Shown here: positions 4,837 to 43,134 of the stretch, piece by piece
Layout of the letters: every line of letters begins with the position of its first letter
Position numbering within the stretch: the stretch's first letter is position 1
DNA from: Deltaproteobacteria bacterium
GTDB taxonomy: Bacteria; Calditrichota; Calditrichia; RBG-13-44-9; J075
Length of the DNA: 43,891 nucleotides
Assembly (NCBI GenBank): GCA_011526015.1
Contig: WYBG01000418.1
Location: 1 to 43,891 of the forward strand
Direction of reading: 5' to 3'
Position numbers and translations under genes: made by a program
Notes under the pieces: model-generated
What the model was told of the DNA's origin: nothing
The model's input: only the letters and a program-made list of their open reading frames with translations
Database searches by the model: none

Positions 4837-4869
4837 AGACCTCAAAGGTTTTGAAAACCTTTGAGGTCT
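4837..4869 (-). promoter_or_regulatory. 33-nt perfect palindrome in the protease 5' leader
   Basis: AGACCTCAAAGGTTTT g AAAACCTTTGAGGTCT lies between the predicted promoter and the AAGGAG ribosome-binding site. It would contain the alternative TTG start at 4845. Confidence 0.7.
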
Positions 4870-4928
4870 GTGGGCCAGGCCACGTAGATAGTCGGCTCCA
4901 TGTCTCGCAACATAAGCCCGGCTTTGCC

Positions 4929-4957
4929 AATATAATGCCGGGAAGGTCCGGCTGCAA
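4929..4957 (-). promoter_or_regulatory. Candidate sigma70-type promoter of the S8 protease gene
   Basis: The minus strand reads TTGCAG-17 nt-TATATT, about 100 nt upstream of the start codon. Confidence 0.45.
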
Positions 4958-5089
4958 AGCGGCAGTGAGATTGGGCAGCAAAAAAAGACTATGGGCTCGA
5001 GGTGTAGTTTTTCTGTTTGCGAAAATCGGGATGAAAGAGTACCTTCTTTAAAAGTTTTATCTCAGTTTTAACCAACGAGGAAAAAACCT

Positions 5090-5347
5090 ATGCAAAAGAG
5101 TCTCTTCTTTTTGGTTTGTTTTGCTATCTTAGCTTAATCGTGTGGCGAGCGAAGCAAACCCAGCGGGCTTTTTTCGGTCAGAGTAAACGACAAAACTGGT
5201 TATATAGATCGAACGGGGAAAATAATCATCGATCCGCGGTTTGATGCTGCCTTGAGCTTTTCCGAAGGGCTGGCAGGGGTAGAGATTGGCGGCAAGTGGG
5301 GCTATATCGATAAGGCGGGGAAGTATGTGTGGAATCCCACGGATTAG
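5090..5347 (+). pseudogene. WG-repeat lipoprotein gene interrupted by an in-frame TAA at codon 16
   Basis: GAGG RBS, then ATG at 5090. Translation: MQKSLFFLVCFAILA-TAA(5135-5137)-SCGERSKPSGLFSVRVNDKTGYIDRTGKIIIDPRFDAALSFSEGLAGVEIGGKWGYIDKAGKYVWNPTD-stop. KWGYID/TGYID are WG-repeat signatures. The stop sits inside the lipobox (LA-x-SC). Confidence 0.55.
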
Positions 5348-5428
5348 GTAAATGGGCAGCGAAATCAGATAAAGAGTAAACCAGTGTGAAAACGGTCCTG
5401 GTGATTAATACTGGCGCAGGTTTCATAA

Positions 5429-5713
5429 ATGTCAATCATCCGAAAAATTCGCCAGAAGATACTTGATCGGGATTACTATCTATCTTCCCATGCGGAAGAC
5501 GAGATGCTAAACGATAACCTGGGACGGAATGACGTTGAAAGAGTTATTCTAACCGGCAAGATAAATCGCAAATTAACCGGTGATATTAGTGGCACGAGAT
5601 ACCGAATTGAAGGCTCGGCAAGGGATGGAAGAAAGGTGTATGTAATCTGCCGGCATAGAGAAGATGGCAGCCTTATCATCATAACCGTATATACCGTATC
5701 GGAGGAAATATGA
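5429..5713 (+). CDS. DUF4258-family protein (putative toxin of a type II TA pair)
   Basis: 94 aa. The motif SSHAEDEMLNDNLGRNDVERVILTG and overall size fit DUF4258. Its stop overlaps the next start (ATGA at 5710-5713). Confidence 0.7.
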   Translation: MSIIRKIRQKILDRDYYLSSHAEDEMLNDNLGRNDVERVILTGKINRKLTGDISGTRYRIEGSARDGRKVYVICRHREDGSLIIITVYTVSEEI

Positions 5714-5931
5714 TTTGTGAATTCTGCGGCGGGCAAACCGCAAAGAAGAAAGTAAAACGGCACCATTGGCTTCATGGCAAATTATACATCATTGAAAACG
5801 TGGAAGCCGAAATTTGTTCTCAGTGCGGGGAGCGATATTTTCACGCAAAAACCCTCGATGAGATAGACCGCCTGTTAACCAGCACGCATGAAGTTAAAGA
5901 AAGAATCGAAGTGGAAGTGGTGAGCTTGTAA
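5710..5931 (+). CDS. YgiT/MqsA-type zinc-finger protein (putative antitoxin, no HTH domain)
   Basis: 73 aa with CEFCGG...CSQCGE (CxxC-N..-CxxC) and IIENVEAEIC, as in the MqsA N-terminal zinc-ribbon. Translationally coupled to the upstream ORF. Confidence 0.7.
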   Translation: MICEFCGGQTAKKKVKRHHWLHGKLYIIENVEAEICSQCGERYFHAKTLDEIDRLLTSTHEVKERIEVEVVSL

Positions 5932-5970
5932 CCAAAGGGAAATTCTCTGCACCACAATAGAGGTTGAGCC

Positions 5971-6084
5971 ATGTCAGCAAACCTTACCGCAGAAGTCTTT
6001 CAAGATGAAATTGCGATTTCATTTCTCTCAGCCCTGAAGAATACCTTTTGGCCAGAAGTCGCTTATATCAAGAAAAAAGGCTAA
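5971..6084 (+). CDS. Hypothetical 37-aa ORF (MSANLTAEVFQDEIAISFLSALKNTFWPEVAYIKKKG)
   Basis: ATG preceded by AGAGG, in the AT-rich islet after the TA pair. I recognise no family. It could be a gene remnant. Confidence 0.2.
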   Translation: MSANLTAEVFQDEIAISFLSALKNTFWPEVAYIKKKG

Positions 6085-6240
6085 AATAACGCGAAAAAAT
6101 TTTTTTCATACCTGCGTGAAACACTTATATGGCAAATGTTTCACAGGTATTCTTCAGGGCTGCCTTTCTCTTTCCCGTCTTGGAGATTATCGCCGGATTC
6201 TTTACATTCTCCCCTGCTAACAAACATATGGAGGCTCTTC

Positions 6241-8561: not shown

Positions 8562-8696
8562 ATGGCCCGGTGAACCGGAGAATCGGCGAACCGGCGATGG
8601 CTGAATCATAAAAGGGTATGGTTTTCACCGGTAGCCTCCCCGTTTCCCCGGTTCTTCCCTTCTCCACTTCAATTCATTATGTAAAGAGAGAAACCC

Positions 8697-9600: not shown

Positions 9601-9682
9601 GATACCGGATTACAGATGCCAGATACCGGATGCCGCGGATTGTTTGAGTTTATCCGGGATCCGGGATCAGGCATCCGGGATC
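9601..9682. repeat. ACCGGAT/ATCCGGG word inverted repeat between convergent genes
   Basis: GATACCGGATGCC (9622-9634) pairs with GGCATCCGGGATC (9670-9682) with 1 mismatch. The right arm encodes the last residues (LIPDA) and stop of the PP2C gene. Confidence 0.5.
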
Positions 9683-19740: not shown

Positions 19741-19868
19741 GGCTATAGGGGCGCAGAGCGCATAGGGCAGAGCGCCACACAATGAAATATCTTACCCCTT
19801 GCACCACGCACTATGCTCTTTGCGCCATGCTCTTTGCGCTATGCGCTCTGCTCTCTGCGCCATGCGCG
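19741..19868. repeat. GCAGAGCG/CATAGGG word inverted repeat with heptamer-phased right arm
   Basis: Perfect 13-bp stem GCAGAGCGCATAG (19753-19765) / CTATGCGCTCTGC (19839-19851). Right arm 19808-19868 reads gcactat gctcttt gcgccat gctcttt gcgctat gcgctct gctctct gcgccat gcgcg. Shares GCGCATAGGGCAGAG with 24583-24597. Confidence 0.85.
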
Positions 19869-21022: not shown

Positions 21023-21092
21023 GCCAATTGGCAATTCTCAATTACAATTAGCAATTAGCAATTGGCAATTGGCAATTGGCAATTGCTAATTA
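21023..21092. repeat. Ten-unit GCAATTG heptamer array between convergent genes
   Basis: gccaatt ggcaatt ctcaatt acaatta gcaatta gcaattg gcaattg gcaattg gcaattg ctaatta. CAATTG is self-complementary, so the array self-pairs in many registers. Confidence 0.85.
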
Positions 21093-21105: not shown

Positions 21106-21765
21106 TCATCCCTCGAATTGATGGCGAATGATTTTGGCTTCTTTCATAAATACCACGTCTTCGCCGATGTTGGTAGAGAGATCCGCCACCCGTTCCAGGT
21201 TCCGGGCGATACGCACCGCGGCAAAGCCTTGCTCCATTTGTTCCGGATTGTTGCGGAGCACTTCGATGGTATCCAGTACGATTTTGCGATAAAGATCATC
21301 TACCAAAGAGTCCTGGGCGCATACTTTTCGCGCCAGATCCGAGTCCTGGTGGATAAAGGCGCTCACCGCGTCATGGAGCATTTTGCAGGAAAGCTCGCTC
21401 ATCTGGAAAAGCTCGTCAAGGGCTTGAACATAGGGCTTTTCTCCCCACTCTATAACCGTCTGGGCGATATTGACAGCGTGGTCGCCGATCCGCTCCAGGT
21501 CGCTGTTCATCTTTAATCCCGCAACGATAAACCGCAGATCGATGGCCACCGGCTGCTGCAAGGCCAGCAGCGCCAGAATCTGATCTTCAATCGCTACTTC
21601 TTTGCGGTCGATTTCCTCATCCAGGTCGATTACCTGCTGCGCCAGTTGGGGGTCCCTTTTTTCCAGCGCCCGCATGGCCTGCCGGATGCTATGCTCCGCT
21701 TCGTTCGCCAGAAATATCAAATCTTTTTTAATACTCTCTAAGAGCTGGATAAACTTTTCTTTCAT
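21106..21765 (-). CDS. phoU: Phosphate signalling complex protein PhoU
   Basis: Two PhoU repeats (DxxIDxxE... and ERIGDHAVNIA / ERVADLSTNIGEDVVF). ATG at 21765; the ORF track opens 2 codons earlier at a TTG. Confidence 0.9.
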   Translation of the reverse strand: MKEKFIQLLESIKKDLIFLANEAEHSIRQAMRALEKRDPQLAQQVIDLDEEIDRKEVAIEDQILALLALQQPVAIDLRFIVAGLKMNSDLERIGDHAVNIAQTVIEWGEKPYVQALDELFQMSELSCKMLHDAVSAFIHQDSDLARKVCAQDSLVDDLYRKIVLDTIEVLRNNPEQMEQGFAAVRIARNLERVADLSTNIGEDVVFMKEAKIIRHQFEG

Positions 21766-21837
21766 CGGCAAATTCCCGTAAAAAGTGGTGGTTATCGGGG
21801 ATACGTGATGCGTAACTCGTAACCGTTCTTACTCATT

Positions 21838-21956
21838 ACGTATTGCGTATTACGCATTACGTTTTACGCATTACGTTTTACGCATTACGTTTTAGGTATT
21901 GCGTATTCCGTAGTTCGTAGTTCGTAGTTCGTATTACGCAATACGGAATACGCACT
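21838..21956. repeat. Seventeen consecutive 7-nt units (NCGNNNT word family) between pstB and phoU
   Basis: Includes 3 perfect copies of TACGCATTACGTTT (21851-21892), 3 of CGTAGTT (21909-21929), and a 13-bp stem 21900-21912 / 21942-21954 (tGCGTATTCCGTA / TACGGAATACGCa). Confidence 0.9.
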
Positions 21957-21962
21957 CCGGGC

Positions 21963-22805
21963 TTATCCGAAGCGCCCGGTAATATAATCCTCGGTCATTT
22001 TCTCTTTGGGATTGGTAAAAATCTTTTTGGTGGTGTCGAATTCCACCATTTCGCCTAACATCATAAAGGCGGTGTAGTCGGAAATCCGTCCCGCCTGCTG
22101 CATATTGTGGGTGACGATGACGATGGTGTATTCTTCTTTCAACTCGTTGATGGTTTCTTCGATTTTGCCGGTGGAAATTGGGTCCAACGCCGAGGCCGGC
22201 TCGTCCATCAGGATGATATCCGGCTTGTTGGCCAGGGTGCGGGCAATGCACAAGCGCTGTTGCTGGCCGCCGGAGAGGTCCAGCGCGGAGGCCTGCAAGC
22301 GATCTTTTATTTCTTTCCAGAGATCCGCCTGTTTCAAGGAAGATTCCACCATCTCTTCCAGTTCGGATTTATTGGTAATTCCGTTTACCCGGGGACCAAA
22401 CGCCACGTTTTCCCAAACGCTCATGGGAAAAGGGTTGGATTTCTGGAATACCATGCCCACCTTTTTGCGCAATTCTTCCAGGCGGATCCCGTTTTTATAA
22501 ATATCCTCTCCCTCGATGAGCACTTTTCCTTTCAGAAAAGAACCGGGAATAAGGTCGTTCATGCGGTTGAAGCAGCGCAGCAGGGTGGATTTTCCGCAGC
22601 CGGAGGGGCCGATAAAGGCGGTCACTTTCCGGTAGGGAATGCGAATATTAACCTTTTTCAACGCATGGGACTCCGCCGAATAATAAAAATCCAGGTCTGT
22701 CGTCTCAATAACGATTTTTTCCCCGGCCAGGGCGAAAAATTCAGCGGGAATTTCCGGATGAGCGGTGTCGGCCATCATCTCCATATCCTTTTGAAGCATT
22801 TCCAT
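21963..22805 (-). CDS. pstB: Phosphate ABC transporter ATP-binding protein PstB
   Basis: Walker [10 protein letters not shown], signature LSGGQQQRL, Walker B ILMDEP, and PstB-specific RCFNRMNDL. Confidence 0.95.
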
Positions 22806-22833
22806 GTTGGTTCTACCTGTAATTCCGAATTTT

Positions 22834-22910
22834 ACGCAATACGTGATGCGTATTTCGTATTACGTATTGCGTATTATGTTTTACGCAATACGCATTACGC
22901 AATACGCAAT
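22834..22910. repeat. Eleven 7-nt units of the ACGCAAT/CGTATTG family between pstA and pstB
   Basis: TACGCAATACG occurs at 22833-43, 22882-92 and 22896-906. Its complement CGTATTGCGTA at 22863-73 can pair with either neighbour. The last unit ends on the pstA stop codon. Confidence 0.9.
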
Positions 22911-24565
22911 TAAAATGTCGATCCTCTGTATTTCTTTCGCAACCGGTTTCTAAAGTAGATTGCCACCAGGTTTAGCAGCACCACGATCACGATTAACAAG
23001 AGCGCGGTGGTGTACACCATCGGTTTGGCGGCTTCCACGTTGGGCGACTGGAATCCCACATCGTAAATGTGAAATCCCAGGTGCATGAATTTTCGATCCA
23101 GGTGCAGGAACGGGAAGGAGCCGTCGATGGCCAGGGTGGGGGCGAGTTTAACTACCCCGGTGATCATCAGCGGGGCTACCTCGCCGGCCCCGCGGCTGAT
23201 GGCCAGGATCAACCCGGTTAGAATCCCGGGCAGGGCGTTGGGTAACACCACCTTGCGGATCATCTGCCAGCGGGTGGCGCCCAGGGCTAACGCTCCTTCT
23301 TTGTTGGCGCGCGGCACCGCCAGCAGTCCTTCTTCCGTGGCCACCACCACCACCGGCAGGGTCAGCAGCGCCAGGGTCAGGGAAGCCCACAGGATTCCCC
23401 CGGTTCCGAAAGTGGGCTCGGGCAATTTGTCGCTGAAAAAGAACTGGTCGATGGAGCCGCCCACGGCGTAGATGAAAAATCCCAATCCGAATACCCCGAA
23501 GACAATCGAGGGAACCCCGGCAAGGTTGTTTACCGAGAGGCGGATGAATCGGATCATGGTACCCTGCCTGGCGTATTCGTTCAGGTAGATCGCCGCCATC
23601 ACCCCGAAGGGAACCACGGCAATGGACATCAGCAGCACCATCACCACGGTGCCGAAGATTGCCGGGAACACCCCGCCCTCGGTGTTGGATTCCCGGGGCT
23701 CATCGGCCACGAATTCCCATAATTTCCCCGCGTAGATCCACGCTTTTGCGGGGCCGCTCATCATGTTCGGCTGGAAAAAACGCACGATTTCCGAGAAGTA
23801 AATCTCTTTCTCCGCCCCTTCCGCAGTGGCCACTGTCAAAATGATGGAACGGTTTTGGAGGGTGAGCCTCTCGAGTTCCTGGTTCAATATCCCGTATTCA
23901 TCGGCGATGGATTGTTCTTGCTTTGTGGCTTCTTCTTGTAATTCGGCCAGTTTTTGCTGGCCTTTTTCGGTTTTCGCCTGCGGGGAAAGTTGCAGCAGGG
24001 TAATTTCGCGCTGCAAGTTCGCCAGCGGCTGCATCAAATTATTCAGATCTTCCTGGGTATTTTCGATGCGCTCCCGGGTTGCAATAGCCAGCCGGTGCGC
24101 TTCCTGCGCTTTTTCGATTAATATTTCGCCAGGCTGCTCAAACCGCTCATCCCCGATCTGCACCAGGCGGATAAACCCGAAAAATTTTCCGTATTCCCGG
24201 CGCTCGATGGTCACCGCTTCCGTGGGATCGCTTTCTTCCGAGACCTGCGCCCGGGTCAGCCAGATAAAATCCCTCCCGTAAAGGTCGCGATTTCCGATCT
24301 TGAGTTGGAACTGTTCTTCTTTGTGTTCCTTGCCCTCGGCGTCCACCCGGTACACGGTTTTTGATTCCCACATTTCCCCCAGGTAAGCGCTATCGTTTTG
24401 TAATTTCACCAGCACGGTATCCCGGGGCCAGAAGAAGGATAACCCCCGGGTCAAGATCACCAGAATGATCCAAACCACCATCCCCAGGGAGATTACTAAC
24501 CCCAGGCTGGCCGCAAAAATATAAGAATCACCCTTTTGTTTAAAATAACTGATTCTACGTTCCAT
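22910..24565 (-). CDS. pstA: Phosphate ABC transporter permease PstA, long form with about 250-aa extracytoplasmic coiled-coil insertion
   Basis: C-terminal permease core with EGALALGATRWQMIRKVVLP...RGAGEVAPL. One N-terminal TM, then a heptad-rich segment (LNNLMQPLANLQREITLLQ...LAELQEEATKQEQ). Confidence 0.9.
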   Translation of the reverse strand: MERRISYFKQKGDSYIFAASLGLVISLGMVVWIILVILTRGLSFFWPRDTVLVKLQNDSAYLGEMWESKTVYRVDAEGKEHKEEQFQLKIGNRDLYGRDFIWLTRAQVSEESDPTEAVTIERREYGKFFGFIRLVQIGDERFEQPGEILIEKAQEAHRLAIATRERIENTQEDLNNLMQPLANLQREITLLQLSPQAKTEKGQQKLAELQEEATKQEQSIADEYGILNQELERLTLQNRSIILTVATAEGAEKEIYFSEIVRFFQPNMMSGPAKAWIYAGKLWEFVADEPRESNTEGGVFPAIFGTVVMVLLMSIAVVPFGVMAAIYLNEYARQGTMIRFIRLSVNNLAGVPSIVFGVFGLGFFIYAVGGSIDQFFFSDKLPEPTFGTGGILWASLTLALLTLPVVVVATEEGLLAVPRANKEGALALGATRWQMIRKVVLPNALPGILTGLILAISRGAGEVAPLMITGVVKLAPTLAIDGSFPFLHLDRKFMHLGFHIYDVGFQSPNVEAAKPMVYTTALLLIVIVVLLNLVAIYFRNRLRKKYRGSTF

Positions 24566-24582
24566 ATCTTTTCCTTCGCATG

Positions 24583-24716
24583 GCGCATAGGGCAGAGAGC
24601 ATAGTGCAACGGGTATGGCATATCGAACCCATGTGGAGATGTGTCACCATAATTTTATTGCGCTGCTCTGCCCTGGGCGCTATGCTCTATGCGCTATGCA
24701 CTCTGCGCTTTGCGCC
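24583..24716. repeat. GCGCATAGGGCAGAG word inverted repeat between pstC and pstA
   Basis: Left arm 24583-24600 pairs imperfectly with 24662-24680. Right arm 24677-24716 reads gcgctat gctctat gcgctat gcactct gcgcttt gcgcc and ends on the pstC stop codon. Confidence 0.8.
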
Positions 24717-26938
24717 TAAAATCGGGCATATTTTTTCCGCAGTCTTTCCCCGATCAGGGAAGAGAGCGTATTCAGAACAAAGGTGAAAATAAACAATAAC
24801 AAGGCGGTCAGGAACAGCACCCGGTAGAGGGTTCCGCCGACCGGCGCTTCCGGGATTTCCACCGCGATGCAGGCGCTCATGGCCCGGAAACCGTTAAAAG
24901 GATTGAGATCGATGATGGGGGTGTTGCCGGTGGCCATTAACACGATCATGGTCTCGCCGACCGCCCGGCCCAGCCCTAACATAATCGCTGCAAAAATGCC
25001 CCCGGACGCGGCGGGAATCACCACCCGGCGCACGGTTTGCCAGCGCGAGGCCCCCAGCGCCAGCGAGGCCGAGGTCAACGATTTGGGCACATTGGAGAGG
25101 GCGTCTTCCGAAACCGTGAAGATAATCGGGATGACCGCAAACCCCAGGGCGAATCCCACCACAAAACTGTTCCGGGTTTCGTAGGTAACTCCCCAGGTGG
25201 TATAGAGCCACTGCTGGAAATTCCCCCCGAACAAGAAGTTTTCCACCGGGTGCCCCAGGCTTAGGGATGCTTGCAAAGCGATCAGGATGACCGGGATGAT
25301 AAAGAGAACTTCAAAGCCGGGACGGATTTTCATCCGGTAACTTTCCGGAACCGCGCGCCAGGCCGCCACCCCGGCCAGGAAAAAGAGCGGCAGAAAAATC
25401 AAAAGCACGAAGGTGCTCATCAGGTATTCTTCGAACAAGGTTGAAAAATACAATCCCGCCAGGAAACCGATTACCACGCTGGGCAACGCCGCCATAATCT
25501 CCACGGTCGGTTTCACGATCCGGGAGAGGCGGAACGGTGCAAACTGCGACACATAGATTGCCGCTAACAGGGCGATGGGAATCGAGAACAACAGGGCATA
25601 GAGGGTTCCCTTCAGGGTTCCGAAGATCAGGGGAATCAAGCTGAGCTTGGATTCGAATTCATCGCTGCCGCCGGTGGACTGCCAGACGAATTCCGGCCCC
25701 GGGTAACCTTCGTACCACACTTTGCCGAAGAGAGACTTCACCGTGCTTTCCGGATGAGGATTATCCAGCCGGAACAGGGTGAAGCGTTTTTGGGCGTCCA
25801 CGAACAGAAGACCGTCGGATTTGGGAGCGAAGGCGCCGGCGGCGATGGGAAAATCCGGGCGGGGAAATTGAACTTCTGTTTTCCCGGTGGTGGAATAGTG
25901 CAGTTGCGCGGCGCCTTCACCGTCAATAGTCAAGAAATCGCGGTTACGCGCGGAATGATAGATATGCGCCACGGCGGCGGAGTGGCTGCGGAAGCTGTGA
26001 ATCTGCCGGAATTTCATAAGATTGGACGGGGTGCGCACCGGGAACCACACCTCTACCGCCCCCGCCCCGGTTCCGATGGCCACGGCCTGGTCGCCCAACA
26101 GGTAGCTGAGGGCGGTTACCGGGCTGTTGGAAATGCTCCATTCATCCCGCAGAGCCACTTTTTCAAAATCTTTCAGGCCGAACCAGCGCATCACCCCGTC
26201 TGCGGCCGCCACCACCAGGTTTTCCCCGTGATTGCTGATGGTCAGGGCGGTCACGGAGGATTCCCCCGGGTATTGCGATAGCGGGTGGAGGTAATCCACT
26301 TCTTCATCGGCGTCGTAACTGCGCACCCATAACGCTCCCTGGTGATCGACCCAGGCATAAAACCGCGAGCCGTCTTCATTCCGGCTGAAGGCCAATTTTT
26401 CTACGTGATTCGGCAGGGTATCCCCGCCGGCGGGAATCTGCCACACTTCTTTTACCGAGAGCGAGGGGATAACCACCCGGCCCTCCCCGGAATAATCCAG
26501 CTGGAATCGCACTTCCGCGGTAATGATCCGCCCGGAATCGGTGCCGGCGGCAAACAGATCCGAAGCCAGGCTGCCCTTTGCGGCGCAGAGGATTTTTTCG
26601 TTCCCGGAAAGCGGCAATTGCGCTTGCGACACCGGTTCCGTTCCGGCGACTTTGTAAAATTGTATATATCCCGATTCGTCGAGAATATAGAATATCTCCT
26701 GGTAGGGATCGATGCCAACCACCAGCGCCTTTGCGGGGCCCCGGCTCGCCGGGAAGGTAAACAGCGTTTCGATGGCGGCGTTTTTTGCCAGGGGCAGGCT
26801 CTGGTAGGCCAGAAACAGCAGGATCGCAGCAATGCTGACAATGATGCCGTAGCCGCCGAAAGTAATCAAGCGCCGCGCCCAGCGGTCCGCCCGGATGACT
26901 TTTTGATAATGTTTTGGCTTCGTCTCTTTTTGTAACAT
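24716..26938 (-). CDS. pstC: Phosphate ABC transporter permease PstC, long form with about 400-aa N-terminal extracytoplasmic domain
   Basis: Permease core with SASLALGASRWQTVRRVVIP...GRAVGETMIV. One N-terminal TM, then a large beta-rich domain. ATG 26938 (GTG at 26941 is also possible). Confidence 0.9.
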   Translation of the reverse strand: MLQKETKPKHYQKVIRADRWARRLITFGGYGIIVSIAAILLFLAYQSLPLAKNAAIETLFTFPASRGPAKALVVGIDPYQEIFYILDESGYIQFYKVAGTEPVSQAQLPLSGNEKILCAAKGSLASDLFAAGTDSGRIITAEVRFQLDYSGEGRVVIPSLSVKEVWQIPAGGDTLPNHVEKLAFSRNEDGSRFYAWVDHQGALWVRSYDADEEVDYLHPLSQYPGESSVTALTISNHGENLVVAAADGVMRWFGLKDFEKVALRDEWSISNSPVTALSYLLGDQAVAIGTGAGAVEVWFPVRTPSNLMKFRQIHSFRSHSAAVAHIYHSARNRDFLTIDGEGAAQLHYSTTGKTEVQFPRPDFPIAAGAFAPKSDGLLFVDAQKRFTLFRLDNPHPESTVKSLFGKVWYEGYPGPEFVWQSTGGSDEFESKLSLIPLIFGTLKGTLYALLFSIPIALLAAIYVSQFAPFRLSRIVKPTVEIMAALPSVVIGFLAGLYFSTLFEEYLMSTFVLLIFLPLFFLAGVAAWRAVPESYRMKIRPGFEVLFIIPVILIALQASLSLGHPVENFLFGGNFQQWLYTTWGVTYETRNSFVVGFALGFAVIPIIFTVSEDALSNVPKSLTSASLALGASRWQTVRRVVIPAASGGIFAAIMLGLGRAVGETMIVLMATGNTPIIDLNPFNGFRAMSACIAVEIPEAPVGGTLYRVLFLTALLLFIFTFVLNTLSSLIGERLRKKYARF

Positions 26939-26985
26939 CACATAATTCTTTTTTGAAAATGGAAATACCGGAACGCCGGAATGTT

Positions 26986-27049
26986 AGATTGATGGATTGA
27001 TGGATGGTTAAATTGCTATCCAACCATTTAACCATCCATCCATCAATCC
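26986..27049. repeat. GATTGATG/CATCCATC word hairpin between pstS and pstC
   Basis: Perfect 15-bp stem GATGGATGGTTAAAT (26999-27013) / ATTTAACCATCCATC (27026-27040) with a 12-nt loop. The arms extend with a bulge to 26986 and 27049. Confidence 0.9.
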
Positions 27050-27064
27050 ACTACTCCATTTTTA

Positions 27065-28048
27065 TTAGTCCAACTGCTTCAATTCTTCCATCACGATTTC
27101 GTACGGCAGCGGCAGGTAGCCGTCTTTCACCACCACTTCCTGGCCTTCGTAGCTGAAAACGAACTTCAGGAATTCTTTGACCAGGGGATCCAGCGGTTTG
27201 CCGGGCGCCTTCACGATATAGACGTAGAGGTAGCGGGAGAGCAGGTATTTCTCGCTGGTTACATTTTGGTAACTCCCGTCGAAGCATTCCCCGCCCTTTT
27301 TCTCCGACAGCGCCAGGGCCTTCACGCCGGAGGTCTGGTAGCCGATCCCGCTGTAGCCGATGGCAAACTTGTCTTCCGTTACCCCTTGCACCACCGAGGC
27401 GGAGCCGGGCTGCTCTTTCACGCTGTCTTTGTAATCGCCCTTGTCCAGCGCGTGATCTTTGAAAAATCCGTAAGTGCCGCTGGCGGAGTTACGGCCATAG
27501 ATGCGCATGGGTTGATTTTGCCATTCACCTTTCAGCCCCAAATCGCCCCAGGTAACGATGTCCGTGGCGAACCCTCTTTTACGGGTCTTGGAGAAAATTG
27601 CGTCCACTTCTTCCATGGAGAGGCACTGCAGGGGATTGTCTTTGTGCACAAACACCGCCAGCGCGTCTAAGGAAGACCGGAGAGCAGTGGGTTTAAACCC
27701 ATATTTTTGCTCGATGGCGTCGATTTCCTTGGACTTCATGGCTCGCGACATGGGCCCGAACTGCGCAGTACCTTCGATGAGCGCCGGGGGCGCGGTGGAG
27801 GACCCTTTGCCCTCAATCTGGATATTCACCAGGGGATAATGCTTGCGAAATCCTTCCAGCCAGAGGGCCATCAGGTTGTTCATGGTGTCGGAGCCGATGC
27901 TGTTGGCGTTCCCGCTAATGCTGGTTGCCTTTTTATAACGGGGAATCCGTTCATCCACCTTAACGTTCTGCGCCATTACCGCCTGGGCGAAAAATCCCAG
28001 AACGATCCAGATAAACAGCATTTTTTTACCGAATGCTACATTCTTCAT
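27065..28048 (-). CDS. pstS: Phosphate ABC transporter substrate-binding protein PstS
   Basis: PBP fold with GSDTMNNL, GKGSSTAPPALIEG and SASGTYGFF. Start at ATG 28048 (AAGGAG 5 nt upstream) gives the signal peptide MKNVAFGKKMLFIWIVLGFFAQAVMA. Confidence 0.9.
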   Translation of the reverse strand: MKNVAFGKKMLFIWIVLGFFAQAVMAQNVKVDERIPRYKKATSISGNANSIGSDTMNNLMALWLEGFRKHYPLVNIQIEGKGSSTAPPALIEGTAQFGPMSRAMKSKEIDAIEQKYGFKPTALRSSLDALAVFVHKDNPLQCLSMEEVDAIFSKTRKRGFATDIVTWGDLGLKGEWQNQPMRIYGRNSASGTYGFFKDHALDKGDYKDSVKEQPGSASVVQGVTEDKFAIGYSGIGYQTSGVKALALSEKKGGECFDGSYQNVTSEKYLLSRYLYVYIVKAPGKPLDPLVKEFLKFVFSYEGQEVVVKDGYLPLPYEIVMEELKQLD

Positions 28049-28181
28049 ACAATCTCCTTTTAATCGTGTAACATCAGGGTTCATTCCCTGAATTAAAAAG
28101 CAGAACTTAATTCCTCAATGTTACAGATCCGTTTCAATTCGGTTAATAGCCTTGTTAATCTTTGGAATCCTGACCTCTTCT

Positions 28182-28216
28182 CCTTCAATCATCAATCTTC
28201 AATTTTCAATTTCTCA
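28182..28216. repeat. Five-unit TCNTCAA heptamer array between porin and pstS
   Basis: ccttcaa tcatcaa tcttcaa ttttcaa tttctca. The last unit contains the porin stop codon. The related word CCTTCAATC recurs at 39595-39652. Confidence 0.75.
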
Positions 28217-29377
28217 CAGGTTCACGGTAATCTGCGAGCGCACCCGCAAAATATTGTCCGTGTTTTCATTGCTTGGCTCCACATATTCCCCGTTTATCTG
28301 TAAGCGGGTTTTTTTACCAAAATAAAAGGCCGGGCCCAGCCGTACTGTCAGCCGATCTGCAAAAATCTCGAAATCTGTATCGAGGTAGCTAACCCCGGCG
28401 GCGAATTCAAGGCCATCAAGCCCGCCCAGGCTTGTGCTGGCGCTTTTTAATTTGGTTTTCCAACGCCCGGTGATGTCAAATCCCGTAAAATCTACATCAT
28501 CTTTGGTATTCAAATAATTTTGGGTAATGGTGCCAAAGGCAACCCCGGCTTCAACGTCCACTCCCATGGGGAGATAGATACCCAGGTCCGGCGCAATAAC
28601 GCTATTTTGGCCCCGGGTATTCTTGACCCCGGTTTTATTGCCCAGGCTATCGAAAACGGCGATTTCGTTGCCGATGTAATTAACCGCTGCGGAGATGCCG
28701 AGCTGAAGTTGCTTGCCGGGATTGAAATCGATCCGCCCGGCCAGCATCTTTCCATTGTTGACATTGTTTACTCTTACTCCGTTTACGGTAAGAGTGGATT
28801 CCTTCCGCCTGGCCAACTCATGAATACCCTCGCCGGCGCCATTATTATAGTTGATGGCAAAGGAAAGCTGTTTGGTCACATTACCGCCGAATTCCGCGCC
28901 CACCTGGCGGGCGGAGAGAAGCATCAGCACTAAAAAGTCTGCCACGGGGCTGCGTTCCACTAACAGCAATTCCCCGGAAGAGCGGATAAATTCCTCCCGC
29001 CACACCGGAACTTTGAATTGCCCGCCCCGGAGATTGTAATTCTCAAACAATTTGATTTTACCGAACGCGTCTTTTAAGACCGGGCTGTTATCCCTCACAT
29101 CGAATTCTACCCGGGCAGAGACAAACGAGGTGAGCTTCGCGTCGGTGCGCAGCCGTACCCGCCGCATCCGGAATCCGTAATTGGTGACTGTTCCATCGGA
29201 CTCGAACTGGTCGGTGTACAAATGCTGAAGTTGCACCCGCCCCGTAATAGAGATACTTTCCGAATTTGCCGCTTTCACCTCCTGCTTCGGCTCTTTTTTC
29301 TCCTCCTGGGCCAATCCGGATTGGCCTACCATCAGCAAAACCGCCGCTGCCGCCGCCGTTAACATTCTCCGTTTCAT
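28214..29377 (-). CDS. Phosphate-selective porin O/P family outer-membrane protein
   Basis: Signal peptide MKRRMLTAAAAAVLLMVGQSGLA, alternating beta-strand pattern, C-terminal aromatic-rich strand. First gene of the pst operon. GGAGGA RBS. Confidence 0.75.
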   Translation of the reverse strand: MKRRMLTAAAAAVLLMVGQSGLAQEEKKEPKQEVKAANSESISITGRVQLQHLYTDQFESDGTVTNYGFRMRRVRLRTDAKLTSFVSARVEFDVRDNSPVLKDAFGKIKLFENYNLRGGQFKVPVWREEFIRSSGELLLVERSPVADFLVLMLLSARQVGAEFGGNVTKQLSFAINYNNGAGEGIHELARRKESTLTVNGVRVNNVNNGKMLAGRIDFNPGKQLQLGISAAVNYIGNEIAVFDSLGNKTGVKNTRGQNSVIAPDLGIYLPMGVDVEAGVAFGTITQNYLNTKDDVDFTGFDITGRWKTKLKSASTSLGGLDGLEFAAGVSYLDTDFEIFADRLTVRLGPAFYFGKKTRLQINGEYVEPSNENTDNILRVRSQITVNL

Positions 29378-29431: not shown

Positions 29432-29532
29432 CTTTTGTTACAGGGGTTGCCAGTTTACCGAGGAAGTGTTACAATTCAATTGCAGGATCGTGTCATTTTT
29501 GTTTTAATCATAAATAACCCTTGAGAATTGCG

Positions 29533-31338
29533 ATGAATCGCTATAAAATTAGCCTAAAAAGGGTGAGCGACCCCGGAATCATGATGCGCCTTTTTCGCAA
29601 TGCGAGTAAAGCTTTTTCCCGTTCCCGTTCCCGCCCCCGCCCCATGGGAGGGCGCGGACGCGCTCTCTTGCTGGCGCTGGCGGTTTTGAGCGTACCATCT
29701 TTTCCCCATCCTCAAAATGATCCTTCCGGAAGCGGCGGGGCGAGCATCATCACTGCCGATTCCATCGAACAACATACCAGGGCCCTGGGGCACGATTCTT
29801 TGCAAGGGCGCGCCACCGGTTCCCCGGGAGAGCGAAAAGCGGCGGAGTACCTGGCCAGGCGCCTGTCTTTTCCGGGGCTAAAGCCCCTGGGCGACCAACA
29901 CTCCTACTTCCAGGCGATTCCCATGCACGGCAGCATTCCCACCGCGGAGTGCGAGTTGCGCCTGTTCTCCCGCCAGGCGATTTCCCGCGATGCAGTTTCC
30001 CGCGTTACCGTCTATGATTTCAAATTGGGTGAGGAATACCTGCTTTACCGCACCGGGGCGCAAACTTTCATCCCCAACCCGGTTCCGCTGGTGTTCGTGG
30101 GGTATGGCATTATTGCGCCGGAATTTGATTATAACGATTACCAGTCTCTAGACGTGGAAGGGAAAATCGTGGTTTTCCTATCCGGGGAGCCCGGCTCCGC
30201 GAATCCGGAATATTTTGGCGGCGGCGACCCCACGATTTACGCCTCCCCGGAAGCCAAGCAGCGCCTGGCGGTATCGCGGGGGGCCCTGGGAAGCATCCTG
30301 ATTCCGGCGCCGGAGGAGCAGCGCGGGGGATATTGGGCGCGAATGCAGAAGGAATTTTCTTTCGAGGACGTGCAACTGGCTTACGGGACCGCGGGAAACC
30401 TGAGCGTGTTGATCAAGCCTGACGCTGCACGAAAACTTTTCCAAGATGCGCCCCACTCGCTGGACGAAGTATGGGAAATGCACCGCCGGCAACGGATACA
30501 CAGTTTTGCCCTGGAGGCGGCGCTTTCTTTCAAGGGAGAGTTTATCCAGCGTGAGTTTATCGCTTATAATGTTCTGGCCGGCCTGGAGGGGCGCGACCCG
30601 CAACTGAAAGATTCTTACCTGATCCTTACCGCCCATTATGACCACTTAGGCATCGGGCCGGCGGTAGATGGGGATTCTATCTACAACGGGGTATTCGATA
30701 ACGCCGCAGGGGTTGCCGCGCTGCTGGAGATCGCCCGCGCCTTTGCCGCCCTGCCGCAGCCCCCCGAACGCTCGCTGATCTTTTTATTCGTGACCGGGGA
30801 AGAAAAGGGATTGTTAGGTTCCCGGTATTACTTAGATCACCCGGCAGTTCCGTTATATAAAACCGTCGCTAATTTGAATATTGACGGGCTGGCAATGTTC
30901 GAGAACTTCAGCAGCGTGATCGGCATTGGGGCGGAGCTCTCCACCCTGGGCAAAACCCTGGCGCGGGCGGCCGGGCAAACCGGGCTGCGGATTTCAGAGC
31001 TTCCCCCGGAATTTGCCACCACGGAATCCTTCGCCCGCTCCGACCAGGTGGCGTTTGCCGGGGCAGGTATCCCCTCCATCCTGGTAATGGACGGCATCGA
31101 CTACCCCGGCGCTTCCCGGGAAGAGGGGCTGAAACGCCTGATCTTCTGGAACGACACCGTTTATCACACTCCTTTTGATGATCTCCGCCAACCGATGAAT
31201 TTTGCAGCCGCGGAACAACACGCCCGCTTTTTATTTGAATTTATCCATACCCTGGCGGAAGATGATTCGGAGCCGGAGTGGCATCCCGATGCGCCGTACC
31301 GGCATATCCGGCTGCGCAACCGGGCGGAAAAACGTTAA
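29533..31338 (+). CDS. M28-family aminopeptidase with PA domain
   Basis: Zinc-ligand contexts HYDHLG, DNAAGVAALLEIAR, FVTGEEKGLLGSRYY and YHTPFDD. The start is uncertain (TTG 29521, ATG 29533, 29581 or 29644). A signal-like segment GRALLLALAVLSVPS is present. Confidence 0.8.
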   Translation: MNRYKISLKRVSDPGIMMRLFRNASKAFSRSRSRPRPMGGRGRALLLALAVLSVPSFPHPQNDPSGSGGASIITADSIEQHTRALGHDSLQGRATGSPGERKAAEYLARRLSFPGLKPLGDQHSYFQAIPMHGSIPTAECELRLFSRQAISRDAVSRVTVYDFKLGEEYLLYRTGAQTFIPNPVPLVFVGYGIIAPEFDYNDYQSLDVEGKIVVFLSGEPGSANPEYFGGGDPTIYASPEAKQRLAVSRGALGSILIPAPEEQRGGYWARMQKEFSFEDVQLAYGTAGNLSVLIKPDAARKLFQDAPHSLDEVWEMHRRQRIHSFALEAALSFKGEFIQREFIAYNVLAGLEGRDPQLKDSYLILTAHYDHLGIGPAVDGDSIYNGVFDNAAGVAALLEIARAFAALPQPPERSLIFLFVTGEEKGLLGSRYYLDHPAVPLYKTVANLNIDGLAMFENFSSVIGIGAELSTLGKTLARAAGQTGLRISELPPEFATTESFARSDQVAFAGAGIPSILVMDGIDYPGASREEGLKRLIFWNDTVYHTPFDDLRQPMNFAAAEQHARFLFEFIHTLAEDDSEPEWHPDAPYRHIRLRNRAEKR

Positions 31339-31364
31339 AAGAGTGTTAAGGTGTTCAGGTTGTC

Positions 31365-31474
31365 CTATCACCTGACATTTGAGAATGGTCAATGATGTGA
31401 ATCGGAGAGTGGGAGAAACGGAGAATGGGAGATGCAAGTCTCCGTTTCTCCCGCTCCCCCATTCTCCGTTTCTC
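31365..31474 (+). repeat. 110-nt element, copy 1 (5' of the second pstS), with two mutually exclusive strong hairpins
   Basis: About 90% identical to 32355-32464. Fold A pairs 31407-31424 with 31439-31456 (18 bp, one G-U). Fold B pairs 31413-31429 with 31458-31474 (17 bp, perfect). Confidence 0.9.
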
Positions 31475-31495
31475 TTTGCGTAGCAGAGAATGTGA

Positions 31496-32341
31496 ATGAA
31501 CCGAGGTTTCTGGAAAACTTATTTGCTGTTTTTGCTTTCGCTGTTCATCCTTTGTGGCTGCGCCGGTTTGCGGTCGAAGGCCCCGGCAACCGTCAGGGTG
31601 AAGGGGTCCGATACCATGCTGCTGTTGAACCGGATGTGGGCGGGAGAATTTATGAAAACGCACCCGGGAATTTCGATTCAGGTGGAGGGCGGGGGAACCG
31701 CCACCGGCGTGCAGGCTTTAATCGAAAGCAAGGCGGATATTTGTGCGGCGTCCCGCCCGCTCCATCCCGAAGAAGCCGGCGCCCTGGCCCAACGCCACCG
31801 CACCATTGGGTTCTCATTCCTGGTCGCCAAAGACGCCCTGAGCATTTTTCTACACCCCCAAAACCCCGTAAAAGACCTTACCCTGAAGCAAGTTAAAGAG
31901 ATATTTACCGGAAAGATAACCAACTGGGCGGAAGTGGGGGGATTGGACCAGGAGATTCTGGCGCTCATCCGATCGCACGATTCCGGAACCTATCTCTATT
32001 TTAAGGAGCACATGCTGGAAGGCGAGTCCTATGCCGCTTCCGCGCACACTGTGCCGACCACGGCAGATATCGCCGCGATCATCGCTCGCACCCCGAACGC
32101 GATCGGCTATGGCGGCATTGCCTATGGCGCCAATGTAACACTGGCAAGGATCAACGGAATCCCCGCCACCGCGGAAACGATCCGCTATAACCTCTATCCC
32201 TACACCCGCTATTTATATCTTTATACCGTCAATAAACCGGCCGGGGCGGTGAAAGAATATGTCGATTGGATATTAAGCCCGGAAGGGCAGCAGGTGGTGC
32301 AGAGCGCGGGTTACCTGCCCCTGTGGGAGACGTTCGAATAG
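31496..32341 (+). CDS. Second PstS-family phosphate-binding lipoprotein
   Basis: Lipobox ILCGC. VRVKGSDTML, VEGGGTATGVQALIESKADICAASRP and SGTYLYF match the PstS/PBP-like-2 fold. Confidence 0.85.
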   Translation: MNRGFWKTYLLFLLSLFILCGCAGLRSKAPATVRVKGSDTMLLLNRMWAGEFMKTHPGISIQVEGGGTATGVQALIESKADICAASRPLHPEEAGALAQRHRTIGFSFLVAKDALSIFLHPQNPVKDLTLKQVKEIFTGKITNWAEVGGLDQEILALIRSHDSGTYLYFKEHMLEGESYAASAHTVPTTADIAAIIARTPNAIGYGGIAYGANVTLARINGIPATAETIRYNLYPYTRYLYLYTVNKPAGAVKEYVDWILSPEGQQVVQSAGYLPLWETFE

Positions 32342-32354
32342 CATAAGCCGTGTG

Positions 32355-32464
32355 CTATCACCTGACAGTTGACAATTGTCAATGCTGTGAACCGGAGAGT
32401 GGGAGAAACGGAGAATGGGAGATGCAAGTCTCCGTTTCTCCGCCTCCCCCGCTCTCCGTTTCAC
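32355..32464 (+). repeat. 110-nt element, copy 2 (3' of the second pstS)
   Basis: Same order and orientation as copy 1. 13-bp stem 32402-32414 / 32429-32441. Contains a perfect 14-bp palindrome TTGACAATTGTCAA (32369-32382) that is degenerate in copy 1. Confidence 0.9.
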
Positions 32465-32485
32465 CTTTTCAAATTACGCGGCTGC

Positions 32486-33685
32486 CTACTGCTTGATAGC
32501 CGCCTGCAATCCCATGACCGCCATAAACCACCAGAAAATATTATTTTCCAGATCGGTGTAATAACACTGGAAGAATCCTGCAATCAAAATACCGGCAACC
32601 GCTAAAATACTGCCGAGTACAAGAGCTTTATCCGCAGCCGCGGAAATCCGCCGATAGGCGCGAAACGCGATGTAAAACCAGGCGCTCCATACCGCCAGCC
32701 AGGCCAGCAGCCCCAAAAGCCCGCTGCCGACCGCCATATTCAGGGCATCATTATGGGCGTGGGTGGCGGTGTCATAAAACCCGGGCACTTTATACAGCGG
32801 AAACATTGTAGTGAACATTCCGGGGCCGATTCCCCAAACCGGGTGGCCGGCGATCATCGCCGCGGAGGTTTTCCACAAATTCAGCCGGGTCTCGTTCTGG
32901 GCAAGGTCGAAAATGCTCAAAAACCGCTCCTGGAAGACCGGCGCAGCCAGCGCCAGCACAACGGCGATGACAATGAGCGCCGCGCCGGCAATGGCAAAAA
33001 GCCGCCGGTTGACCAGCCAGGTTCCCAATCCTAACACCAAAACCGCTGCAATCCAGGTGCTGCGGCCAAAGGTGGCAATCACGCTGGCGAAAATCAGCCC
33101 TGCGGCCAGCAGGTACAGCGCCCGCCGCCTCGGTTCCTTCTCGAAGAGCAACAGGGCGAAGGCCAGGCAAAAAGCCATCAACTGATTGCCCGCAAAGGTG
33201 AGGTAGAAATTATACCCCCCGTTGGCGCGGTAAAAATCCCCGTGAGGGGTCAAAGTCGTGCCGCGAAAGATATCTATCCCCCCAAAAAACTGAAAAAGCG
33301 CATAGATCGACACTGCGGAAGCGGAAAAAAGCAGCGCCTGCGCCACCCTGCGCCGCCCCTCTACCGAGAGCGCCAGCATGGCCAGCAGCGGGATGGCAAA
33401 GGCCGGCCAGTCGGTATTCAAAAACGCTTGCAGGGAAGGCCCCGGCGCGGCGCTGAACAGGGCGCTGAGGGCCTGGAGAAGCAGGTATATTGCCAATATG
33501 ATAAAGAAGGGATGCCGGTAATCGCGCAGCCGGCGCCGCCGGATTGCTGCAAACGCGCCGTAAGCCGCCAGCAGCCCCAGGGCGATTTGCATCGCCGCCA
33601 GGGACCAGGGAAGCGCCAGCGCCCAGAGGGAAAACAGGAAGATCGCGATGCGATCCGTTGGTTCCTCGTTCAAATATTTTTCCAT
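32486..33685 (-). CDS. O-antigen ligase (Wzy_C) family membrane protein
   Basis: About 10-12 TM helices, with the loop GRSTWIAAVL...THAHNDALN typical of O-antigen ligase-like proteins. Confidence 0.75.
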   Translation of the reverse strand: MEKYLNEEPTDRIAIFLFSLWALALPWSLAAMQIALGLLAAYGAFAAIRRRRLRDYRHPFFIILAIYLLLQALSALFSAAPGPSLQAFLNTDWPAFAIPLLAMLALSVEGRRRVAQALLFSASAVSIYALFQFFGGIDIFRGTTLTPHGDFYRANGGYNFYLTFAGNQLMAFCLAFALLLFEKEPRRRALYLLAAGLIFASVIATFGRSTWIAAVLVLGLGTWLVNRRLFAIAGAALIVIAVVLALAAPVFQERFLSIFDLAQNETRLNLWKTSAAMIAGHPVWGIGPGMFTTMFPLYKVPGFYDTATHAHNDALNMAVGSGLLGLLAWLAVWSAWFYIAFRAYRRISAAADKALVLGSILAVAGILIAGFFQCYYTDLENNIFWWFMAVMGLQAAIKQ

Positions 33686-35717: not shown

Positions 35718-35826
35718 GCAGGGGCAGGAGCAGGAGCAGGTAAGGTAAATTGTTTACTGCCCACTGTGCCCCCCTGCTCCTGCCTACTGCCCCTGCCACC
35801 TGCCCCCGCTCCTGCCACCTGCCCCT
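35710..35826. repeat. GCAGG/CCTGC word inverted repeat spanning both convergent gene ends
   Basis: GGCAGTAGGCAGG(ggcagg)AGCAGG (35710-35740) pairs with CCTGCTCCTGCCTACTGCC (35773-35791). The left arm contains the GT2 stop. The right arm encodes the GT4 tail GAGGRSGGRWQGQ. Confidence 0.85.
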
Positions 35827-36985: not shown

Positions 36986-37046
36986 GCATAATAGGGTATA
37001 GGGCTTTGTCTCCTTATACCTTATACCTTACACCCTATACCCTGCA
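36986..37046. repeat. GGTATAGGG/CCTTATA word hairpin between rsmB and the GT4 gene
   Basis: Perfect 11-bp stem AGGGTATAGGG (36993-37003) / CCCTATACCCT (37033-37043). Right arm reads ccttata ccttata ccttaca ccctata ccctgca. Confidence 0.85.
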
Positions 37047-38473: not shown

Positions 38474-38543
38474 GGTTGAAACGGCCCTGTTAATATAGTG
38501 AATGGCTCCATTTATGATAAAACGTGGTCCGTGATTCGTAACT

Positions 38544-38673
38544 CGTAATGCGTAACTGGTAATGAGTATTGCGTATTGCGTATTTCGTATTTCGTATTTC
38601 GTATTTCGTATTTCGTTACGTTTTACGCATTACGCTTCACGTTTTACATTTTACATTTTACGTATTACGCTTC
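38544..38673. repeat. CGTATT/ACGCATT heptamer arrays between usp and rsmB
   Basis: 12-bp stem CGTAATGCGTAA (38544-55) / TTACGCATTACG (38623-34). CGTATTT x5 lies at 38579-38613 within a 7-nt phased run from about 38565. Eight ACNNTTN units at 38618-38673 run across the usp stop codon and its last 4 codons (KRNT). Confidence 0.9.
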
Positions 38674-43063: not shown

Positions 43064-43134
43064 GGATTGTTGGAGTAATGGATTAGTGGAGTGGTGGAGC
43101 ACTGGATCACTGGATTATTGGAGCGATGGGTTAT
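43064..43134 (+). repeat. Octamer-phased GGA array (eight GGA motifs exactly 8 nt apart)
   Basis: (c)ggattgt tggagtaa tggattag tggagtgg tggagcac tggatcac tggattat tggagcga tgggttat. GGA occurs at 43064, 72, 80, 88, 96, 104, 112 and 120. There is no complementary arm nearby. Confidence 0.8.

Follow-up and report, generated by a model that had tools for sequence, protein, structure and literature searches.

The stretch analysed here is positions 1 to 43,891 of contig WYBG01000418.1 (the window in what follows) from assembly GCA_011526015.1, deposited as a Deltaproteobacteria bacterium and placed in Calditrichota by GTDB. Our subject is a pair of short repeats bracketing pstS2, a gene for a PstS-family phosphate-binding lipoprotein. 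On the minus strand, positions 21106-29377 hold phoU, pstB, two permease genes, pstS1 and a phosphate-selective porin gene. Divergent from this pst operon, an M28-family peptidase gene and pstS2 lie on the plus strand, and a Wzy_C gene and lipopolysaccharide glycosyltransferase genes converge on pstS2. Feature coordinates are collected in Table 1.

Aligned without gaps, 31361-31477 (copy 1) and 32351-32467 (copy 2), each 117 nt long, are 90% identical, and blastn gives 91.7% over 108 nt for the same pair. The original prediction, which had described direct repeats of about 90% identity around pstS2, is borne out in this respect. The left edge of the pair lies 4 nt beyond the start points given there (31365 and 32355), whose distances of 27 and 14 nt from the stops ending at 31338 (M28) and 32341 (pstS2) are right, as is the distance of 21 nt between the end of copy 1 and the pstS2 ATG (31496). 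Each copy begins with a conserved module of 26 nt and continues into a long imperfect hairpin (~78 nt). The part ahead of the hairpin spans ~36 nt and starts with TGT(C/G)CTATCACCTGACA, and the hairpin loop is TGCAAG in both copies. Each hairpin arm is built from four 8-nt units, which read GGAGAnnn in the 5' arm and the complement (nnnTCTCC) in the 3' arm, with a period of 8/16 nt. The window contains no third copy of the module (two matches at ≤2 mismatches).

Table 1. Features of the window, in window coordinates (TIR, terminal inverted repeat; MITE, miniature inverted-repeat transposable element; L067 and L136, related genomes introduced in the text)
Feature	Position	Strand	Remarks
Promoter-like site TTGCCA-17-TACAAT with TG	29447..29475	+	consensus match at 10/12 positions; candidate promoter of the M28-pstS2 operon
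M28-family peptidase gene, first of the pair	29521..31338	+	Pfam PF04389, E = 1.3e-39; orthologues in 80 loci
Ancestral spacer, outside the element	31340..31360	+	GTGTTAA/GGTGTTC heptamer-like repeats; aligned in L067 and L136 to 31360/31364
Copy 1, MITE-like, without right TIR	31361..31473	+	113 nt; bounded by the breaks in homology to relatives; loose family ends at 31357-31361 and 31472
Left TIR of copy 1, TGTCCTATCACCTGACATTTGAGAAT	31361..31386	+	1 mismatch to the family TIR
Hairpin core of copy 1	31397..31474	+	four 8-nt units per arm; loop TGCAAG at 31433-31438
pstS2, PstS-family phosphate-binding lipoprotein gene, second of the pair	31496..32341	+	TIGR02136, 221 bits (cut-off 206.6); PF12849; lipoprotein-like N-terminus
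Copy 2, MITE-like	32351..32475	+	125 nt; breaks off within the right subterminal region, ending ...CCTTTTCAAATT, without right TIR
Left TIR of copy 2, TGTGCTATCACCTGACAGTTGACAAT	32351..32376	+	3 mismatches to the family TIR
Perfect 14-bp palindrome TTGACAATTGTCAA	32369..32382	+	spans the inner TIR and the subterminal region of copy 2
Hairpin core of copy 2, single long imperfect hairpin	32387..32464	+	loop TGCAAG at 32423-32428
O-antigen ligase-like Wzy_C gene, convergent	32486..33685	-	copy 2 occupies the gap between both stop codons
Period-7/8 array sites	476-498, 8567-8597, 9613-9682, 19800-19867, 21025-21085, 21829-21954, 22832-22910, 24577-24715, 26985-27050, 28183-28210, 35718-35783, 37012-37041, 38536-38669, 43064-43129		

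The repeats proved to belong to a wider set. An exact 22-mer from the hairpin arm retrieved one near-identical copy (L006) in an uncultured Calditrichaceae metagenome-assembled genome (MAG), in a different gene context and with the module present again, as its reverse complement, beyond the hairpin. Pattern scans with the module detected 6, then 18 loci in four Calditrichaceae MAGs (29 loci matched overall in the second scan), the remaining matches, outside Calditrichaceae, being at chance level. Many Bacteroidota matches to an 18-nt TIR pattern fell in coding sequence (a LDYHLTFE motif, in murE-like and other genes) and were discarded as chance matches, together with a single metagenome match of the same coding kind (L066).

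Within these Calditrichaceae loci the module takes the form of a terminal inverted repeat (TIR) of 26 nt, TGTACTATCACCTGACATTTGAGAAT. Both TIRs are found in ten element copies from related Calditrichaceae MAGs; in an eleventh (L152) the right TIR is degenerate and was spotted by eye, outside the 7-mismatch scan. TIR mismatches number 0-4 at both ends in nine full-length copies and 6 in the left TIR of L047. Full-length elements measure 159-263 nt, too short for a transposase gene, and fold at -60 to -145 kcal/mol; 3-9 assembled copies are present per relative MAG. Flanking 10-mers are identical (10/10) in L025, L147, L161, L169 and L152, match at 9/10 positions in L012 and L024 and extend to an 11-nt match in L153, while those of L047, L035 and L163 are degraded (4-6/10). 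The matching flanks are target-site duplications (TSDs) of 10 bp. Prokaryotic MITEs are shorter than ~500 bp and have TIRs of ~4-30 bp, limits within which these elements fall, and their overall layout is that of such a MITE. All 15 family members examined are intergenic, and the gap contains a gene 3' end in 9 of the 11 that could be classified. At least four unrelated hairpin core types are bounded by the same TIRs; the cores are G+C-rich, with GGAGA/CTCC arms or GGGAAGGGGAGGG, and the GGAGA-octamer type is common to the window copies, L006 and L047.

Two members deserve separate mention. L152 (1361-1575) has the same TIRs and an exact 10-bp TSD, GGTGAATCAC, and its core arms are TTGCGTA/TACGCAA heptamers, of a heptamer family that also fills several gaps of the window. 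L147 (3066-3278) and L161 (7330-7542), from different MAGs, are one 213-nt element that occupies an identical site and has an identical TSD, CCATTCAACC; certain insertions are thus older than the split of these lineages, and the two copies of the window younger. MAGs of Stahlbacteria, Acidobacteriota, Nitrospirae, Desulfobacteraceae and Armatimonadota share the exact 22-mer GGGAGAAACGGAGAATGGGAGA too (L001 5300-5560, L002 1101-1342, L004 5013-5254, L007 1-242, as well as L003 and L005), within GGAGA-type octamer arrays or hairpins, where ~0.07 matches would be expected by chance for a random 22-mer. Convergence of low-complexity arrays and horizontal transfer are both possible explanations.

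Copy number was assessed from metagenomes. The organism of the window, an uncultured wastewater Calditrichaceae bacterium, is present in many bioreactor and sludge metagenomes. In Logan assemblies, pstS2 lies on contigs of ~950-970 nt that terminate within both repeats, as expected of a repeat family. Summed contig depth is 15-17x the flanking single-copy depth over the TIR and ~56x over the hairpin core, and these ratios are equal in two unrelated metagenome runs. Ten contigs branch to unique sequence exactly at 31357-31361, and 11 run past 31472 into the right-TIR consensus. These data suggest ~15 TIR-bearing copies in the source genome, most of them right-complete, an estimate to which other community members may add depth. 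The element is therefore multi-copy genome-wide rather than confined to the pstS2 locus.

A pstS-like gene follows the M28 gene on the same strand, at most 400 nt downstream, in 75 of the 80 loci with an M28 orthologue, which cover Calditrichota, KSB1, Ignavibacteria, Melioribacteraceae, Bacteroidota and a few others; of the five loci without an adjacent pstS, two stop at a contig edge. M28-pstS is an old two-gene unit across the Fibrobacteres-Chlorobi-Bacteroidetes (FCB) group. The order M28-pstS2-Wzy is also kept in the two relatives L067 (MAG CAZFVV01, 94-98% nucleotide identity) and L136 (MAG JABWBP01, 88-93%), and both copies are absent at the orthologous sites there. Alignments of L067 and L136 to the window break at 31360/31364 and at 32350; they resume downstream of copy 1 at 31474 (L136) and 31536 (L067), and downstream of copy 2 at 32483/32494. 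Resumption only at 31536 in L067 is explained by the additional lack of the pstS2 start in that genome. The M28-pstS2 spacer of L136 is 105 nt of other sequence. In L067 (9792-9860), the closest relative, the spacer is 12 nt and pstS2 starts with GTG and a different N-terminus, MFRWSQECKIYF..., as if a deletion had taken the ancestral spacer and the start codon.

A strain contig (L062) carries the copy-1-specific 3' half and pstS2 without any nucleotide difference, with a different sequence replacing copy 2. In addition, the hairpin of copy 2 is identical at 75/77 positions to the unlinked copy L006 and at 71/77 to copy 1, and copy 2 and L006 share 97.9% over 94 nt. Relatives devoid of both copies, the L062 variant and the closeness of copy 2 to L006 together point to separate acquisitions from different family members.

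These observations make it probable that the two repeats are members of a MITE family that inserted independently of each other, after the split from close relatives and at transcribed positions between genes. Several points weigh against this interpretation. The pre-insertion sequence has been partly replaced, rather than cleanly interrupted, and neither window copy has a TSD or more than one TIR, which leaves transposition into this pair of sites to be deduced from the family pattern; replacement of some ancestral spacer would itself leave a TSD unreadable here. With random insertion, finding two of ~15 copies within 1 kb of a multi-Mb genome is a somewhat surprising outcome. AT-richness of the element and of its insertion sites is typical, although not obligatory, for MITEs, and this family is not AT-rich. 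No autonomous partner was identified, no TIR pair enclosing a transposase in the loci examined. Finally, contigs from RNA-labelled runs, discussed below, fit read-through of copy 1 but cannot separate it from DNA carry-over or reveal 3' ends.

Regarding an autonomous partner, the only candidates are two contig ends from one Calditrichaceae MAG, L168 (1-432, reverse strand) and L159 (899-1079), which start with the TIR variant TGTACTATCACCTGACATATTGGAAT followed by non-hairpin sequence. In L168 there is a basic open reading frame of ~93 aa that has no Pfam match and may contain a frameshift at an A-run. Both fragments may be the ends of an autonomous element. A degenerate right TIR following either window copy was also considered and excluded, because the sequence there is ancestral (homologous in L136) or the coding end of the Wzy gene.

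Folding was analysed for both copies, with predicted energies of -70.5 kcal/mol for copy 1 and -71.3 kcal/mol for copy 2 (z = -8.0 and -9.7 against shuffled sequence). The alternative pairing pointed out earlier for copy 1 does exist: GAGAAACGGAGA (31413-31424) can pair with TCTCCGTTTCTC at either 31439-31450 or 31463-31474, and both helices form when forced, although with 18 and 19 pairs instead of 18 and 17. The terminator/antiterminator geometry attributed to them does not hold. The optimum for 31384-31480 is one nested hairpin at -44.6 kcal/mol; forcing the proximal helix gives -43.0 kcal/mol (pair probability 0.13), and forcing the distal helix gives -37.7 kcal/mol, 6.9 above the optimum (pair probability ~0). 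The competing registers are a single long hairpin slipped along its 8/16-nt periodic arms, and no U-tract lies past copy 1, the tail of which reads UCUUUGCG. As modelled, the apparent two-state fold of copy 1 is register slippage of periodic arms and not a switch. Likewise, the perfect 14-bp palindrome noted in copy 2 is present, but was wrongly taken for a special gain, since a near-palindrome is found across the family. The majority of members have AATTGTCAA where copy 1 reads AATGGTCAA, the TTGACAATTGT of copy 2 recurs in a TIR variant of L035, and a related TIR variant reads TTTGACAATTGT. By this comparison, the palindrome of copy 2 is a family trait sharpened through one or two substitutions. 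No Rfam family matched the window or six relative loci at gathering thresholds, and a permissive E-value threshold returned only generic microRNA-precursor hairpins, far under their cut-offs.

As for transcription, a promoter scan found no sigma-70-like site in either copy and a good one upstream of M28, in agreement with the earlier view that pstS2 lacks an independent promoter. A -35/-10 pair pointing outward, readable by eye in the canonical TIR, was dropped because both window copies carry a changed base at the end of the -10, and the TIR module was rejected as a Pho box because it has no direct repeat spaced by 11 nt. Given the lack of a promoter in copy 1, the conserved M28-pstS adjacency and the 12-nt gap of L067, pstS2 is most likely transcribed through copy 1, as first proposed. 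In RNA-labelled runs, contig depths for M28 and pstS2 are similar, at 12.9 vs 10.4 (X26) and 5.9-7.7 vs 8.6 (X25), and contigs enter the hairpin from both sides and break inside the repeat.

The scenario that we favour is the following. The repeats appear to be members of a lineage-specific, non-autonomous MITE-like family found only in related Calditrichaceae MAGs, whose full-length element is ~160-260 nt long, with 26-nt TIRs, a 10-bp TSD, a long hairpin as core and no protein. The window copies belong to the subfamily with four 8-nt GGAGAnnn units per core arm and, as both have lost the right TIR, are probably immobile now. Copy 1 would have landed in the spacer of an ancient M28-peptidase-pstS operon and copy 2, separately, in the gap that parts pstS2 from the convergent Wzy gene. 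With the operon transcribed from a promoter upstream of M28, copy 1 would be part of the mRNA and fold into an imperfect hairpin of ~35 bp, while copy 2 would give both the pstS2 message and the convergent Wzy message the same hairpin at their 3' ends. There the hairpins might act as a partial block to transcription, as a barrier to 3'-exonucleases or as substrates of RNase III/E, shifting the M28:pstS2 expression ratio without sensing phosphate; passive effects of this kind have been reported for Correia, ERIC (enterobacterial repetitive intergenic consensus) and REP (repetitive extragenic palindromic) elements (PMC10969869). A passive action in mRNA is, on our analysis, the most likely one, although we hold any particular RNA effect with much less confidence than the independent insertion of MITE family members.

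Other explanations were weighed against independent insertion. Direct repeats flanking exactly one gene could result from a local segmental duplication, in which the element was copied along with a pstS2 cassette and the repeats would drive gene gain and loss; the L062 variant, which differs downstream of pstS2, could be read in this way. However, pstS2 stood beside M28 before either copy arrived, as shown by the relatives without the copies and the 75 of 80 loci in which the pair is adjacent, so that the accessory cassette envisaged in the original prediction finds no support. Moreover, copy 2 resembles an unlinked element from another genome more than it resembles copy 1, and a joined form lacking pstS2 was not seen in four runs, whose contigs could not reveal a rare variant. 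We thus regard duplication as very improbable. Hardly any credit can be given to a dedicated cis-regulatory RNA, that is, a terminator/antiterminator or slipping-stem switch acting on read-through from M28 into pstS2 and perhaps responding to phosphate. Its appeal comes from the alternative helices of 18 and 19 pairs, from the position of copy 1 in an operon spacer 21 nt ahead of a start codon and from the failure to find an internal promoter. Yet the distal helix falls well short of the optimum, the populated registers are one hairpin and a U-tract is lacking. Furthermore, L067 and L136 have no such element in the M28-pstS2 spacer, so it is not conserved with pstS2, its ~15 occurrences lie next to unrelated genes, and Rfam yields only sub-threshold microRNA hairpins.

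Two further possibilities concern what kind of element this is and what it does at gene ends. It is unlikely that the family is REP- or REPIN-like (REP doublets forming hairpins), spread by RAYTs (REP-associated tyrosine transposases, IS200/IS605-type) or by 3'-hairpin recombination rather than as a DDE-type MITE: TIRs of 26 nt together with regular target duplications of 10 bp are the hallmark of DDE transposition, and REP/REPIN elements are not known to make such duplications. What speaks for this alternative is the location of long hairpins at gene 3' ends, the lack of a detected transposase and the presence in nearly every 3' gap of the genome of some long periodic hairpin, replaced between relatives; truncated MITEs are also known to resemble REPs (PMC10969869). 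Somewhat less remote, though still improbable, is that the copies are domesticated bidirectional terminators, the hairpin and the CCTTTTCAAATT tail having been selected to end M28, pstS2 and Wzy transcription. Copy 2 does lie between convergent genes and folds alike on both strands (-71.3 and -71.6 kcal/mol), and pneumococcal SPRITE elements are terminator-like MITEs (PMC10969869). Nevertheless, no T run follows copy 1 and only four T follow copy 2, relatives do without any element at either site, and pstS2, lacking its own promoter, would be silenced if copy 1 were a strong terminator.

Among described elements, QMITE2 of Coxiella burnetii has nearly the same architecture, with direct repeats of 7-9 bp, TIRs of 23-29 bp, a core of 113-145 nt and a total of ~190 nt; it too forms one very stable stem-loop in transcripts, lies mostly in 3' untranslated regions and has many TIR-less truncated copies resembling REPs (PMC10969869). 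Its host belongs to another phylum, and the present family has TSDs of 10 bp and several unrelated core types; the likeness is architectural, and we claim no sequence kinship. Correia/NEMIS (Neisseria miniature insertion sequences) of Neisseria and ERIC of enterobacteria are also small palindromic TIR elements co-transcribed with their neighbours; Correia RNA hairpins are cut by RNase III, and ERIC alters mRNA decay via RNase E (PMC10969869). Unrelated in sequence to the Calditrichaceae element, they duplicate a TA target and carry promoters or sites for integration host factor. REP elements, bacterial interspersed mosaic elements (BIMEs) and REPINs are comparable as imperfect palindromes located after gene ends and between cistrons. 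In those places they stabilise upstream mRNA or attenuate downstream expression. REPs, however, are 20-40 nt long, have neither TIR nor TSD and are linked to RAYTs (PMC3116915), in contrast to the 78-nt hairpin, 26-nt TIRs and 10-bp TSDs found here. Chunjie, a MITE from Geobacter uraniireducens (~235 bp), likewise has TIRs, direct repeats and many partial copies, and one of its copies disrupts a phosphate-uptake operon (PMC10969869), whereas the coding regions are intact in the window. Finally, the TAACTGA heptamer repeats of Beggiatoaceae, cyanobacteria and Bacteroidetes are intergenic 7-nt tandem arrays of obscure origin, variable among close relatives (PMC4679880). Those arrays mostly lie just upstream of start codons and form no hairpin arms (PMC4679880), while ours make up both arms of hairpins past stop codons.

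The two copies stand against a background of similar structures. Tandem arrays of period 7/8 are found in 13 of the 19 window gaps that contain a gene 3' end vs one of the seven divergent gaps (Fisher p = 0.026). Most of them form both arms of a long hairpin, and every intercistronic gap of the pst operon carries such an array hairpin. Orthologous gaps in L067 and L136 (88-95% identical genomes) have hairpins too, built from different repeat units. Array density is 0.36-0.41 per kb in the window, L067 and L136 and 0.28 in one further Calditrichia MAG, vs ~0-0.1 in most of the other 76 FCB loci around the M28 gene (four at 0.15-0.26), so the periodic-arm hairpin trait seems largely confined to this Calditrichaceae clade. 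Compared between strands as a test of RNA-level selection, the folds of the window's 3' hairpins show no consistent bias (7 sense, 5 antisense). After pstS1 (26942-27064, minus strand), a long GATTGATG-type hairpin precedes a small one, CCGG-CGTT-CCGG, whose tail is T-rich; as this small hairpin resembles a conventional intrinsic terminator, the long hairpins may not be terminators themselves. One might imagine that the hairpin core is more than a passenger and belongs to a lineage-specific system that actively makes or spreads periodic-arm hairpins at gene 3' ends, with the TIR element as one vehicle and either a REP-like role at mRNA 3' ends or a use as protein-binding arrays with 7-8-nt periods, but we consider this doubtful.

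Two other features of the window are recorded here. The pst permease genes (24716-26941 and 22910-24565) are unusually long, encoding 741 and 551 aa; in the 741-aa permease, the BPD_transp_1 domain is preceded by ~450 additional N-terminal residues that have weak beta-propeller/WD40-like matches. A region of 1290 nt between divergent genes (4846-6135) has a G+C content of 0.44 vs ~0.55 and contains no open reading frame of at least 150 aa and no Rfam match.

The repeats near pstS2 thus appear to be fairly ordinary selfish DNA. A false lead is thereby removed: the alternative helices by pstS2 would be a by-product of a mobile periodic-arm hairpin and not a phosphate-responsive RNA switch. The deeply conserved M28-peptidase-PstS pair in the FCB group is of wider interest, as we found no description of a functional link between the two proteins. 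Judging by the searched literature and Rfam, the Calditrichaceae MITE family had not been described before. It explains the assembly breaks around pstS2, and its TIRs and 10-bp TSDs could serve as strain markers in wastewater metagenomes. Also of broader interest is the habit of this clade of placing fast-turnover, repeat-armed hairpins after its genes.

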